A DNA stretch of 64,000 bases from Lingula anatina (taxonomy: Eukaryota > Animalia > Brachiopoda): the NCBI GenBank assembly GCA_051362555.1, contig CM120644.1:3728954-3792953 (forward strand), written 5' to 3'. A program made the translations under genes and the position numbers. The notes beneath the pieces are model-generated. The model had not been told where the DNA came from. It worked only from the letters and a program-made list of their open reading frames with translations, and made no database searches. This document shows, piece after piece, positions 26,901-47,900 of the stretch (within the stretch, counting starts at the first letter, position 1; each line of letters opens with the position of its first letter).

Positions 26901-29900
26901 CTCCTAGCCAGTGATGTATACATGGAACAAACAATTTGCAATCTTTACTGCACCATTATTGGGCATAGTATACTCACAAATGCCATCATTCAGGAAAACT
27001 AATACACAATAATGACATTCAATTCCTTATCACTATTTACATTTAATTATTTACCAACCTTTATCCTTGAGATTGTTGAAATTACAGGGTTTCGCTAGAA
27101 ACTACATATTTTTTCTACCTCTTACTATACTATTGCCACTTAGTAAATTAAATGCCAAATTATCTCCTGTGAAGAAATATTTAATCCCAGCTTGCTACAT
27201 GTATACACCAGTGTCATCAATACCCCTGCTTCCCTCCTTAACTCACCATTGGCTTATTATATATTTTAATTTAGCAAAAATAAAAATGACTGCTTTTGCC
27301 AATATGGCAAAAGCTTCAAAATTTTCCACAATACACCTTTAACATTAAGCCATTTTAAGTGTGCACACAAACTTTATTAGGTGGCACATACATTACTAGC
27401 AAGCATTTGACTTAGAGAAAATTTGCTCTTTTAGAAAATGTTGGCTACAGTAAAATTTATTCTAAAAAAAAAAAAAAAAAAAAAAATGCAGTTAACCCCA
27501 GCAGACAGCAATTAAAAGATGACAACAAATAACTAGAAATCTACAGAAACCTACAGATGGCACGGTCTAATCCCAGCTTTTTAACTGCCCACCACAATCC
27601 TCCTTTCACAACAAGCACCTCATTAAGAAATCTTTTCAACCACAACATACTGTAAGACAGCATTCACAACAAAGTTGATCCGTGGACTAACTAAGCTGCA
27701 GATCAAATATGGAGCCGCTTGACGATGGATTCCTACCTCCCTGCAGGGGAAGAGCAATCAAATCTCGGCATGCTTTCAAGTGGGTGGCACCATATTTGAT
27801 CCTCTGGATCTATTAGTTCGTGGATCAACTTGTTCTGAATGTGCCTTAACAACCATCACCCCACTGCTGGCACAGTGTCTGCAGAACATTGTTTATGGGT
27901 TGTTGCATCTATTCAAGACACTGGTGAAGCATCATTAAGATTCTATGCCAAGACTTAAAATACCCATTCCATTAATATGTGTTCACACATTTAAGGTTTT
28001 TTCTTCACGTATTAATTTACTCCGGTGTAATACCAGAGTCTCAGTCTGGTGGAAATTTGTGGCTCCTTACACTTGGTAAGACACAACTCTTATACATAAG
28101 TCTAAGATAACGGATTATTAAAAGAGGATATTAGGTGGCACATACATTACTAGTAATATATAGTAATATAATTGTAAAGGTGAAGATATAAAATGACATA
28201 AATAAATGTAGGGGTCAGTAGTCTGTATTAATAGTAGATGAAAGGAGAGGAAGAAATTATTTGCTCAGCTCATTAACGGTTGGTGTTGGTAGCGAGAGCG
28301 GGAGTCACCCTGTTGCTCGAGTAGGAACACCTTGACGACCGAGCGGCACGTAAAATGGTAAAATACTGAGCTAGATACTTGAGCGAGGTTGGTAATTATT
28401 GAAGGTGGGGTCAGAAAATAGTATTTAGAGAGGACACTGAATGCTAATCTCTAGAAAGCAAAACATGGCATCCTAGTGGAGTGGCTAAACGAAAAAATCT
28501 TGACACGGTGGATACTAAATCAAATCAGAGAAGCCCTCTAAAAAAATAATAATAAATAAATAAATAAAAAATTGACCATTTGGACAAAAAATCCAAAATA
28601 GGTAAAAAAATCCAAAAAAGGTCTTGTTTCATTTCTAACAGACTGATCTCGATATGAATGATTTCACTTTGCAGATAGGCCCTCGTCTCAAATGTACACA
28701 TTTCTAGAAGAGAAGAAGATTGCAGCTCTCGTGCATGGAATACTCTGACAATCATAACATCTAGAATATTGAGTGAGTGTATCTCACAGACAGTATGGCA
28801 ATCGGTTATAACATGGATATTGCTGCCATTAAACTACCACCATGGCAAACACGACTTGGCTGGAACAAGTTTTGCATCCTACGGATACTACTACTGATGT
28901 TTGGAGGAATGTATGTAGTTGCTAACGCCACTAGAGACAATCAAAAACTGGCAGAGACAGACAAGATGATCCCAAGCCTAAGTCGCTGGAGTCATCAGCA
29001 CACAGAATCAATCAATTTCGTAGAAGAAAGATCTGATCTCGACAGGAAATCCCATAAACAGCTAGGCACCAGCAAGGTAAAATGGCTGTTAAGAAGGCCT
29101 CAAATGTGGTGCTAGTGCTAATTCAGAGTGTTAAACATCTTGTGTTGGTCAAAATTTCAAAATGTACTGTGCAAGTTCATTTTAAAATTTGTCCATACCT
29201 AAAGCATTAAAGAATGCTGAAATCTTCCTAGTTAAATTGAAATCAGAACAAAATCCAAGAAACTTCAAATATATATTGACAGAAGCAGCTCAAAGCAGTT
29301 TTAAATAACATCATGTCTATCCTTTTTGAGACCATTCCTGAGGTTGCTTTGATTTTAGACTATCTGTGGAGACCAATCTTCTATATTTCATACAATCATT
29401 TATGGTTATTTTGTAATTACTTAATTTAAAACTTTCTTTAAATTATTCATCATTTTCTTTGAAAACTTTAATCTAATATTTCAAGACTCACCTTTTCCAG
29501 ACACTCACAAAAATTAGCCCCCTGACACCAGGCCAACTCATTTCTGAAACAACATTTCTAATTTTTCCAAACCAAACAATTTTGAAGAGGTGGGGTGGGG
29601 TGGGGTGGGGGTGGGGGGTTTTCATATTATCAAGCTTCTTTGAGCAATTTGTGTGATATTACAAATCAGGACGTAACGTAAAATCTCTTCCAGCGAAAGG
29701 CCACAAACCACTTGACTCCTTGCAGAGCCAGTTCCAGGTGCATAAACATGACGATATCTCCTATCCCTCCTTGTATAGCTGACCTTAAGCCCTACTTCAC
29801 AAAGTACCTAAACGTATTTGGCGTCCATATTGTGGCAGTCGAAGATGTACCTGACACCAGGGTGCTCCACGCTGCAAATATCATGGCGGAGTACTTGGAC

Positions 29901-44900: not shown

Positions 44901-47900
44901 GTACCTAAACGTATTTGGCGTCCATATTGTGGCAGTTGAGGACATACCTGACACCAAGGTGCGCCACACTGCAAATATCATGGCGGAGTACTTGGACAAT
45001 GATGGCGATGGAAAGGTGGATAACAAAGCCATTGTCAGTAAACTGATAGAAAATAAGGCTCTGTTTTCGTTGTTCAGGTAAGGCTAGGGGGAAAAATTAA
45101 CAGCTTAAAAATTGACAAACCCTAAAATATTTTGACTGGGAACTAAACTCTACCAAAAAAGTTTGGAAACATCATAATTGAAAAACTATGTTATGTAGTG
45201 AGAAGTTAAAAGAATGGTGGATGTATTATCCATCAATATTTGGTTAAAATATTTACCTTTAAGTTGGCTCATATAGTAATTTTATAATTATTCAAAATAA
45301 CAAAGTTTCCCAACTTTTTTGAGCGAGTGTATTATATGACCACAGTATATATACAGCAGACTCAACATAACTCATCAGTTTAACTTTGTTATTGCTTAGT
45401 TAAAATAAATCTTGGGGATTGGCTTTTAATTTTTGGTAGAAGTTGTATATCGTATATAAATTGCCTAACATCTTTGAATTATCAGAAAAAAGGTCCAAGA
45501 GTTATGGAGGTCTACTGTAGTGTAAGTACTTGACCAGAGTACCAAATTCTACTGTTTATCTTTTGGTGTTTCAGTAAGATTTAACCTTGTCTGAAGATTA
45601 ACTTTTCATTGGAAACATCATCTTATACATTTCAACATATCAAAATTATCATACAGAATGAATTTATCACATCTAAAAAAAATTTAAAAAACATTCTTTT
45701 GCAGATCCACAAGTCAAATGAATACTATGCAGTACAAATCCAAGAAAAGCATGGCAACCTTCAAGTAAATTATTCTTCTTTTTACTCCATTAACATCAAG
45801 CTCTGAATATCAGGACAATCCCCCCCCCCCCCACAAAAAAAAAAAAAAAAAAAAATATATATATATATATATATATATATATATATATATATATATATAT
45901 ATATATATATATATATATATATATATATATATATATATACACACACACATGCTAATATGCAACCCCTGGATAGAGAATATTAATATCATCAAACAAATTG
46001 TTTTATCCCAATTTCATTTCCATGCAGTACAAATACAGAAAAATTAGAAATAGAAGTACAGAAACTTTTATTAAAAATCTGGTCAAAGTATATCTCCGGG
46101 TGAAGGTGGGGGGTACATGGACAATCTCGTTCATCAGTGTATCCCTAATGATGAATTCACAAGCGGAGTCTCACAGGCATTTTTTTTTTATCTTCTTTCT
46201 TTCAGGGCCTACAAAATGGAATTCCACCTGTTCAAAAATGACGAATATCTCAATGAATCAGACATTGACTTCACACTGGAGGAGACACTCCATCTTATTA
46301 CAGGTTTCGGCTTCGCCTTTGCCTTTCCTGCTGTGTTTGGCGAAAACAGTGGCTCCACCTTGGGGAAAATTACACTGGAGGCCATTGCGGATTGCGGACT
46401 GGCATACAAACATACATACAAGTGAGCAGCACAATGAAAAATTTTTTGTAAATATTATCTTAAAAGCACAAATACTATACATTCAAATACTTAATGAGGA
46501 CATGGGGCCAGTTTTACAAAAGAAATTAGACCTAAAATTGGTCCATAATTAAGACAAAACATTTGGTCTACTTTACTTTAAAACAAACTAAAATTAAGTT
46601 GTGCAATAAAATAAAAGTATCAGTAGACTAAGTCTGAAACACAATCTATTTCATGTTATAAAACAGACCCTATTACTGTATTTCATTTAATTGGACTATA
46701 ATTGCCAATTATTCCTGAATCAAGGCAGACTAAAATTTAAGTCACTAAGTTTAGTCCAACTTTTTGATTAAAGGTCTTTTGTGAAACAGATGCTGGATGC
46801 CAACAAGATAATAGTGTGTTCCAAAAACTTTTACTTGCATTTGAAGCAATTAGTGTTTGTAAGTGTGCTAGCATTGTGTAAAACTTTAACCTTTTCACTA
46901 GCCCAGTGTACCTTTAGGCTCTATTTCCATAGGTTTTAGATCGATCTATCCCCGCAGGGAGTCTCACTAGATTACTTTCAGATAATCCAACTTAAATGTC
47001 CATCCCGCCTACTACAAGCTGTAAGGAGGTAATTAGCTTTCGTGTCCGCCCGGCTGACAGCTATTTAGCGTGAACCCCCAGGGAGTTAGGTCGATCTAAA
47101 GTAGGTCGATCTAATCTATGGAAATGGGGTGTAAGGTGGTCAACTGCCTTATATAGGTTGCTAGTATTTCACTGCTGAGATTAAGAGCGTATTCAGAACA
47201 GTGAACTAACAGATCTGCAGATCAAATATGGCAACCCATTTTAAAGTTTTCCACTGAATTCCTGATTAGACGATTCCCAGAGGAGATTACACATTCAACA
47301 AGCATTCAAGTGGGTCGGCCATATTTGATCTGTGGATCTGTTAGCCTGCTGTTCTGAATATGCTCTGAGATGACATCTTAAGATGGTTCTTTCTGCAACT
47401 TCAGATGGCCCTATTGTAAGGGTGTGTACCACTATAAGGACCCCACCTGCAAGATGAACTGCCTGACTTCAGAGTTGATCTACTGGGGACTGACCTCTAT
47501 CCTGGGGATACAAAAGAAGCCTGTCAGAGCAGCGTACATCAGTAATGAGTGGGAACTGTACAACAAACTACTACTCAAGACCAAGCTACCTCAACTCTAT
47601 CATCTGCTGACCAATCCCGAGTACAGATTCCCCACTGTGGCTCCTGTTGGTCACTATGGCAACACTTGTTAAGCTGGTCTATAAAAATGCTTGTTTACAG
47701 TAGCTGGTCAGTGGTCACTTGTAAAATTTGCTAGTGGTCACTATGACAAAATTCATTAAAATTGGCCAGTGGTCTCTACGGCAACACTTGTTAAGTTGGC
47801 AAGAGGCCACTAAGGCTATATTTTTAAGTTGATCAGTGTCGCTATGGTAACACTTGATAAGTTGACCAGTGGATTGAATGACAGAGGTCACCACTTCACG

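Follow-up and report, generated by a model that had tools for sequence, protein, structure and literature searches.

The window analyzed here is a 64,000-nucleotide stretch of contig CM120644.1 of the brachiopod Lingula anatina (assembly GCA_051362555.1, positions 3,728,954 to 3,792,953 of the forward strand), in which three closely-similar genes, coding for a protein with an EExxH motif, lie in tandem on the plus strand inside the BARD1 gene. Each gene comprises five exons, located at 28795-29076, 29694-29980, 30622-30681, 31313-31528 and 31932-32199 in copy 1 (370 residues), at 34819-35097, 35724-36010, 36650-36709, 36950-37165 and 37568-37835 in copy 2 (369 residues), and at 42088-42366, 44791-45077, 45705-45764, 46206-46421 and 47405-47672 in copy 3 (369 residues). 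The reading frames are open throughout, with 0 internal stops, and the introns of the three copies have GT-AG boundaries in 12 of 12 cases, their phases being 0, 2, 2 and 2. A preliminary description of this locus, made from the DNA letters alone, had reported three intact five-exon genes; these were recovered at the coordinates given above, as were all the motifs that it had named, the sole deviation being HTANI instead of HAANI in copy 3. The proteins of copies 1 and 2 share 96% identity, and that of copy 3 is 86% identical to either. The first intron of copy 3 measures 2,424 nt versus ~620 nt in the other copies; on the minus strand at 43460-43969 it contains a fragment of a zf-C17orf113 zinc finger (E 1.6e-13), which is probably a transposase remnant.

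Exon 1 has an open frame in each copy, with an in-frame 3-nt indel between copies, and it encodes a hydrophobic stretch of 19 residues at about residues 26-44 (28870..28926, plus strand, in copy 1) with a Kyte-Doolittle hydropathy of 1.8-2.0, in keeping with the hydrophobic leader noted earlier. This stretch ends in A-x-A, the rule for signal-peptide cleavage, and could be either a type II membrane anchor or a signal peptide whose n-region is long. The first match of exon 2 is the Lingula anatina RefSeq protein XP_013385781.1 (LOC106155430), to which exons 2-5 are 91-97% identical and the core of copy 3 is 97% identical. The RefSeq model begins at the internal methionine of an MTIS sequence, without exon 1; because the cysteine just upstream of this methionine is common to the window genes and their two nearest relatives, as is the C-terminal cysteine, we place the coding start further upstream, in line with the gene model of the preliminary description.

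The host gene is a BARD1 orthologue on the minus strand (20975..51332), with RING exons at ~50.6-51.3 kb, ankyrin repeats at 23.2-24.8 kb and tandem BRCT domains at 21.0-22.8 kb, the BRCT domains being detected by Pfam and the RING and ankyrin regions read from the translations. All three copies lie inside BARD1, as had been proposed, and are enclosed in one of its introns, which spans 23,653 nt (25083..48735, minus strand) and has a donor at 48735 and an acceptor at 25083 that are frame-compatible; we infer this junction from the sequence, and no RNA-read placement covered both ends. Two other BARD1 introns, at 48976-49260 and 49867-50071 (minus strand; 283 and 203 nt), are confirmed by RNA reads. 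A short GGELNS peptide recurs in the exons beside these two introns and might reflect an internal duplication. Self-BLAST delimits three tandem duplication units of ~6-8 kb (27606-33607, 33605-39892 and 40138-48174), each taking in the gene with its introns and flanks and no BARD1 exon. In their triplication and their position in BARD1 the genes look like a nested gene that has recently undergone ordinary tandem duplication, and the nesting is probably without functional meaning, while being good evidence against contamination.

The core of the encoded proteins, after residue 111, is under purifying selection: its ratio of non-synonymous to synonymous substitution rates (dN/dS) is 0.17, 0.31 and 0.38 across the three copy pairs, and in all three pairs synonymous changes exceed non-synonymous ones (Fisher p 0.0003, 0.0001 and 0.003). 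Residues retained in all three copies include E123, E124, H127, E193, D119, D182, Y180, W197, E218 and W219, here numbered as in the family alignment, to which 112 is added to give the numbering of copy 1.

An AlphaFold2 model of the protein, built with a 73-row alignment, has a predicted local distance difference score (pLDDT) of 89.4 and a predicted template-modelling score (pTM) of 0.89. Among PDB entries, Foldseek ranks the Pro-Pro endopeptidases PPEP-2 and PPEP-1 and collagenases highest for this model, with E values no better than 0.02. In a wide VIA structure search PPEP-3 came out best (Z 7.0, root-mean-square deviation 4.3, 164 aa), with PPEP-2, lethal factor and collagenases next; 16 chains reached Z>=5, of which 14 have a zincin fold going by their titles and general background. 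In the Atlas, ATLF/Peptidase_M90 is the Pfam assignment of the nearest clusters that have one (score 0.80), which we treat as a lead only. Based on moderate scores that agree in two aligners, both ranking the PPEPs best, we predict a gluzincin-like fold with the active-site helix between N- and C-subdomains, consonant with the zincin-like fold that the preliminary description had suggested.

The candidate metal site was examined in the family alignments. E123, E124 and H127 on the central helix, together with E193 on the helix 187-202, do not vary in any of the 73 aligned rows. In copy 1 they correspond to E235, E236 and H239 of the EETLH sequence (31386..31402, plus strand), an EExxH where zincins have HExxH, and to E305, the glutamate of SELIYW (31999..32001, plus strand), a predicted third metal ligand. 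Alignment with hhalign of an 89-row family alignment to three environmental HExxH proteins yielded a probability of 88% (E 3e-6, score 47.3, with 20 column shuffles scoring at most 19.0), in a register that sets EExxH on HExxH, with the invariant E124 on the glutamate that serves as the general base, and E193 on the glutamate of EYxA, that is, on the third ligand. The earlier proposal that EETLH and the SELIYW glutamate form a variant metal site is therefore consistent with the predicted gluzincin register. In addition, residues 163-171 of copy 1 (29898..29924, plus strand) form a DNDGDG..D loop, in which D51 and D59 of the alignment are invariant and N52, D55 and G56 nearly so. In the model it lies between the helices H36-50 and H61-69. 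Calcium loops follow the consensus D-x-D/N-x-D-G with a further acidic ligand; the DNDGDG sequence with D59, in its predicted helix-loop-helix setting, fits this consensus and is a putative Ca2+ site.

Among known systems, the closest in predicted structure are PPEP-1, PPEP-2 and PPEP-3 and the M34/ATLF-like gluzincins (PDB 9g0j, 6fpc, 5a0p), with which the model shares an alpha/beta N-domain, an active-site helix and a helical C-domain; these proteins are extracellular, as is probable here, with the base glutamate, the second histidine and the third-ligand glutamate in register. Unlike them, the window family, at 9-14% identity and with no Pfam match to ATLF, has glutamate for the first histidine throughout. 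The PPEP-3 site is described as consisting of His153, Glu154, His157, Glu197 and Tyr190 (part of PMC12828418); 40 residues separate its ligands, versus 66 in the window family, whose intervening segment bears cysteines and which has the DxDxDG loop as its own feature. A His1-to-Glu substitution has been described in M2 peptidases, and the roles of substituted zincin sites are said there to be poorly understood (part of PMC3650047); in that case the substitution affects some members of an HExxH family, whereas here EExxH is the rule, being present in 329 of 348 family proteins, with CExxQ in 8. The closest relatives with a canonical site are HExxH "zinc-dependent peptidase" proteins of marine Verrucomicrobia (L163, L164 and the N-domain of P0216), which give weak ATLF/M90 matches. 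They resemble the window family in an N-terminal strand-strand-helix, an EY..W/AE helix and a DP.l..l tail, and differ from it in having HExxH and in being devoid of the DNDxDG loop and the C..C-EY.YW segment; in P0216 the HExxH domain is fused to an EExxH domain. More generally, the prokaryote-type proteins P0216, P0224, P0136, P0135 and P0153 are fused to a second zincin-like domain, with HExxH or a distant EExxH.

Searches with the exons of the window protein recovered no Pfam or NCBIfam family, save one weak repeat match (E 0.017), and the core domain of the 73 aligned members had no Pfam match either, including ATLF (PF07737) and Peptidase_M90 (PF06167) (0/73 at E<=0.5). No broad set of animal orthologues appeared, in keeping with the earlier impression that this is no standard animal family. 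A PDB sequence search with the core gave a single match (E 4), which was dismissed as chance. The family is nonetheless large: a HMMER search of a representative library, in which proteins of >50% identity are merged, found 987 representatives at E<=0.001, the best 150 of which were listed, and in GTDB at least 521 of 602 pattern matches were confirmed as relatives. The latter come, among the matches listed, from Verrucomicrobiota, Planctomycetota, Poribacteria, Bacteroidota, Chloroflexota, Gammaproteobacteria and a Nitrosopumilus bin. The prokaryotic homologues cited in the preliminary description are indeed abundant, and mostly marine. In one phylum sampled, 25 of 401 genomes carry the family. 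Partner domains in the relatives (type IX secretion system (T9SS), RTX, cadherin, dockerin and EF-hand) point to an extracellular setting. Because prokaryotic members also carry signal-peptide-like N-termini, the leader need not be a gain in the animal, as had been supposed. Neighboring genes in 80 prokaryotic loci did not reveal a conserved operon; the largest neighbor cluster (26 loci) proved to be antisense shadows mixed with sulfatases, and DUF1501 recurred in 15 loci, both being common in these phyla.

A word-based search of unclustered proteins had shown Lingula as a lone animal amid prokaryotes, a picture that the HMMER search altered. Among single-domain proteins, the best matches to the window genes are P0118 (264 bits) and P0120 (243 bits), versus 172 bits for the best named prokaryote. 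P0118 is a sister paralogue from Lingula itself (XP_013384868.1, LOC106154878), which lies on another scaffold and is 48% identical to the window genes. It shares with them EExxH, a cysteine loop and the N- and C-terminal cysteines, and differs in having, besides its signal peptide, a Kazal-like domain (E 0.005, under the cut-off) and more of the family-typical residues; like XP_013385781.1, it is annotated as uncharacterized. P0120 is a 296-residue protein on a 1,318-nt Logan contig. We rejected P0117 and P0119 as nearest relatives, as they top the representative list only via two prokaryotic-domain copies each. No viral or plasmid vector was seen, since none of 19 pattern matches on viral contigs was confirmed, BFVD gave no match at E 0.001, and a search of plasmids with P0120 as the query found none.

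The cysteine loop, DCG...P.C.G..H, replaces the prokaryotic D.ARGG...AWY in the window genes, P0118 and P0120, and is present in 25 of 348 family proteins by pattern and in 5 more by eye. It occurs in none of 78 parsed GTDB loci (2 more were unparsed), in none of nine listed Planctomycetota-group loci, and in 1 of 76 parsed metagenome loci, on a 1,067-nt contig with a single open reading frame. Of the other carriers whose source was seen, most are on 1.0-1.7-kb contigs and one is an MMETSP transcript; several carriers have protist-style domains, C-terminal anchors or cysteine-rich modules, which we take to be eukaryotic. The eight CExxQ proteins (P0236, P0264-P0269 and P0282) are likewise cysteine-loop proteins, two of them with N-terminal cysteine-rich modules.

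In an 89-row tree a branch with support 86 has all 26 named prokaryote rows on the same side, a side free of cysteine-loop rows, and in a 55-row tree computed with the loop columns removed Lingula, P0118 and P0120 form a clade with support 99/98. The trees show no supported donor sister group of Lingula, prokaryotic included. The fragment row L028_1 was left out of the first tree, and a pairing of Lingula with an MMETSP protein on long branches in that tree was broken by denser sampling. P0033 (XP_013384730.1), a probable chimeric model in which an AMP-binding fragment is joined to exon 5, was kept out of the alignments; situated on another scaffold, it points to a further exon 5 copy in that assembly. 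Lingula is the only animal among the named matches, which include no fungus or plant, and the broad, species-congruent metazoan orthologues that would speak against transfer did not appear, although clustering at 50% could hide some. The horizontal acquisition from a prokaryote put forward in the preliminary description stands in part: transfer is likely and prokaryotic homologues are plentiful, but direct prokaryotic descent at this locus is countered by the older Lingula paralogue elsewhere, the eukaryote-like appearance of the cysteine-loop relatives and the lack of a prokaryotic sister in the trees.

In light of these observations, we propose that a real Lingula gene is present in the window as three intact copies in tandem; it would code for a metal hydrolase, secreted or membrane-anchored and acting outside the cell, with a gluzincin fold like that of the Pro-Pro endopeptidases, and would be of horizontal origin, probably via a microbial eukaryote. 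Taken as a whole, with all its parts, we hold this proposal with a confidence slightly short of even. That the gene is a real EExxH gluzincin variant acquired horizontally is probable; for its individual components, the balance tips slightly toward a microbial eukaryote having passed the gene on to the brachiopod, or to a small animal lineage, and by a similarly small measure toward the protein being an active hydrolase. A divalent metal would be held by Glu235, His239 and Glu305, and, given the glutamate in place of the first histidine, this could be zinc or a carboxylate-preferring ion such as manganese or iron. Glu236 would activate a water molecule, and the enzyme would cut a peptide or amide bond of an extracellular substrate, while the DxDxDG calcium loop and cysteine pairs might stabilize the domain. 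An originally prokaryotic gene would have been carried by a microbial eukaryote and acquired by the Lingula lineage, where intron-bearing paralogues would have arisen after the acquisition; the faster-evolving of these would then have been placed in the BARD1 intron and have undergone the recent tandem triplication. Bacteria-derived, intron-bearing animal genes are also known in the msp130 family (part of PMC11878542). The families of centipede venom acquired by horizontal gene transfer are reportedly bacteria-derived as well. Both parallels involve secreted or surface proteins with microbial relatives, introns and lineage-specific duplication; they concern other families, whereas here one animal genus is named and the nearest non-animal relatives look microbial-eukaryotic. 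One may go further and envisage an undescribed active family of metallopeptidases or amidases with a two-Glu, one-His site (EExxH + E), common in marine bacteria and archaea, that passed to microbial eukaryotes and on to brachiopods, where it would have gained introns, been coupled in one paralogue to a Kazal-like domain, expanded in BARD1 and been put to a specialized secretory role, a fuller scenario that we offer as speculative and on the unlikely side.

Several results weigh against this proposal or its parts. With respect to the fold, Foldseek returned no match at E<=0.001, and VIA Z-scores below 8, like the best one here, may mean only a common arrangement. The three hhalign templates were picked from eight after the likeness had been seen; with all eight the probability was 15% in the same register, and with a single template 5%. 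HExxH with two histidine ligands, the mark of membership, was not found, all three copies having EExxH. Residues 1-111 have a dN/dS of 0.53-1.03 (Fisher p 0.29-1.0) and are indistinguishable from neutral. Expression was assessed in eight of nine same-species raw-read RNA runs, at ~6% or 25% of each, with copy 3 examined in four and copy 1 in the other four. In run X5 the sense-strand depth on copy 1 is 0.96 on exon 1, 0.98 on the bin with the start of exon 2 and 0.73 on exon 4, and the bins of the intron that separates exons 1 and 2 are empty; the exon 2 value equals 256 bases, which by arithmetic is what two reads from the exon 2 acceptor would give. In run X2 exon 5 has a depth of 2.89 versus 19.9 on a BARD1 exon. 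Transcription of the nested genes at a very low level in these samples is thereby hinted at, and the trace reads on copy 1 exons may come from another copy. Set against this, signal on nested-gene exons is confined to 2 of 8 runs, with none in the other 6. Copy 3 exons have no coverage in 4 of 4 runs, though BARD1 is covered 4-12x in X1 and X3, which also yielded two spliced BARD1 joints; X4 and X7 barely covered BARD1. Runs X6 and X8 have no reads on copy 1 exon bins, and BARD1 itself is hardly covered in them. No nested-gene junction is present among the joints listed (>=3 reads each; 25 further joints lie outside the listing). The spliced transcripts called for in the preliminary description are thus represented by trace exon-only sense depth, with no junction among the joints listed.

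With regard to activity, the same origin and fold could have led to pseudo-peptidases, that is, extracellular binding or decoy proteins with little or no catalysis that keep a metal or calcium site. We see an appreciable minority chance that the window protein is a pseudo-peptidase, and regard the corresponding account of the whole locus as fairly unlikely. It would accord with the glutamate at the first histidine, with the long branch to the window copies (0.94-0.96 versus 0.59-0.65 for the paralogue), and with the divergence of these copies at 19 of 65 columns that are conserved at >=90% in 151 non-eukaryote-labelled rows, the changed columns including the QDL..E edge segment. Moreover, a tyrosine six residues before the third ligand, likely to be the oxyanion tyrosine by analogy with the spacing in PPEP-3, is present in 151 of 151 comparison rows and is methionine in the window copies; the sister subgroup of eight proteins is degraded to CExxQ; and substituted zincin sites such as the M2 His1-to-Glu change have precedent (part of PMC3650047). 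Yet EExxH is the family norm rather than a lesion of Lingula, and E123, E124, H127 and E193 and the six other key residues have been kept under purifying selection. The tyrosine position is itself Phe in P0118 and P0120 and Tyr or Phe in other cysteine-loop members, and the invariant Y180 might substitute as the oxyanion tyrosine.

As for origin, a direct transfer from prokaryote to brachiopod, from an unsampled cysteine-loop donor and with the protist-like members reflecting separate or parallel transfers, would suit a family that is overwhelmingly prokaryotic, a 55-row tree whose backbone is poorly supported and whose cysteine-loop rows never unite in a single clade across 200 bootstrap trees, falling instead into 3-5 groups, and a cysteine-loop carrier, P0121, on a 2.5-Mb contig that could be prokaryotic. 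We consider it improbable: the loop is absent from all 78 parsed GTDB loci and all but one of the 76 metagenome loci, its DCG..P.C.G..H segment is closely shared between Lingula and the protist-like proteins, and a single cysteine-loop clade is not rejected by the approximately unbiased (AU) test (p-AU 0.51), the constrained tree being 0.30 log-likelihood units better (LG+G4; 55 of 89 rows, 34 having been dropped as near-duplicates or long branches and to save time). About equally improbable is vertical inheritance of an old eukaryotic gene, with loss from most animals and no transfer into them. The eukaryote-looking relatives occur in several deep groups, which may be one clade, and other animals could be hidden, at >=50% identity to P0118 or P0120, because the word-based search did not even retrieve the paralogue at 48% identity and the library merges proteins of >50% identity. 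Only two single-domain representatives besides the query exceed 200 bits, however, and one is Lingula's own; a gene retained in many phyla should leave more clusters. No animal besides Lingula, and no fungus or plant, is named among the matches, and vertical inheritance would need many independent losses. An artefact is highly improbable. Contamination is excluded by the spliceosomal introns, the Lingula repeats in the introns, the BARD1 exons on both sides, which are covered by reads, and the RefSeq match, as the preliminary description had argued in part. Copies 1 and 2 could be two haplotypes assembled in tandem, with 94-99.5% similarity between their exons and 93.5-97% between their introns, but copy 3 is 84-95% like the others, and therefore at least two loci are real. 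A horizontally acquired EExxH gluzincin variant, probably reaching Lingula via a microbial eukaryote, remains the account that we favor.

Elsewhere in the window, exons of a class C G-protein-coupled receptor, presumably GABA-B-like, lie on the minus strand at 6422-16163, with an ANF_receptor Pfam match at 14233-14628 and transmembrane-looking exons at 6.4-7.7 kb. A HECW1/2-type E3 ligase gene, arranged head to head with BARD1, has its first exon at 57180-58085 (plus strand; Pfam HECW_N); the 3' end and donor of this exon are repeated in a 61-nt tandem array of 10.2 copies (57465-58085), each unit of which has a GTAAGT donor-like site. The HECW intron contains a ~160-nt tandem array of 3.9 copies (60805-61429) and a ~337-nt array (61820-62648). 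An element of ~215 nt with inverted ends, resembling a miniature inverted-repeat transposable element, is found in five copies (12170-12348, 20570-20786, 26360-26573, 40308-40527 and 46916-47135), on which RNA reads from many other loci pile up to several hundred-fold depth.

Precedents exist both for animal genes that were acquired horizontally and bear introns and for substituted zincin sites; what is new is a family with EExxH as the rule and with a patchy eukaryotic branch that reaches a brachiopod. The six Lingula accessions occur in no searched paper, and titles retrieved with "EEXXH" concern ZIP transporters, protein design and MRS, with no zincin and nothing on this family among them. 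The word "horizontal" is absent from the main text of the Lingula genome paper, whose supplements could list the gene (PMC4595640), and one supplement of PMC13425148, which may use other identifiers, contains neither the accessions nor two peptides of the family. The family has hundreds of members, yet no Pfam or PDB-sequence entry, and its family-wide His-to-Glu zincin motif offers a clean test of activity and metal choice. If true, the transfer, whether from a eukaryote or a prokaryote, would be a dated, intron-bearing case in a lineage used for the study of lophotrochozoan and shell evolution.

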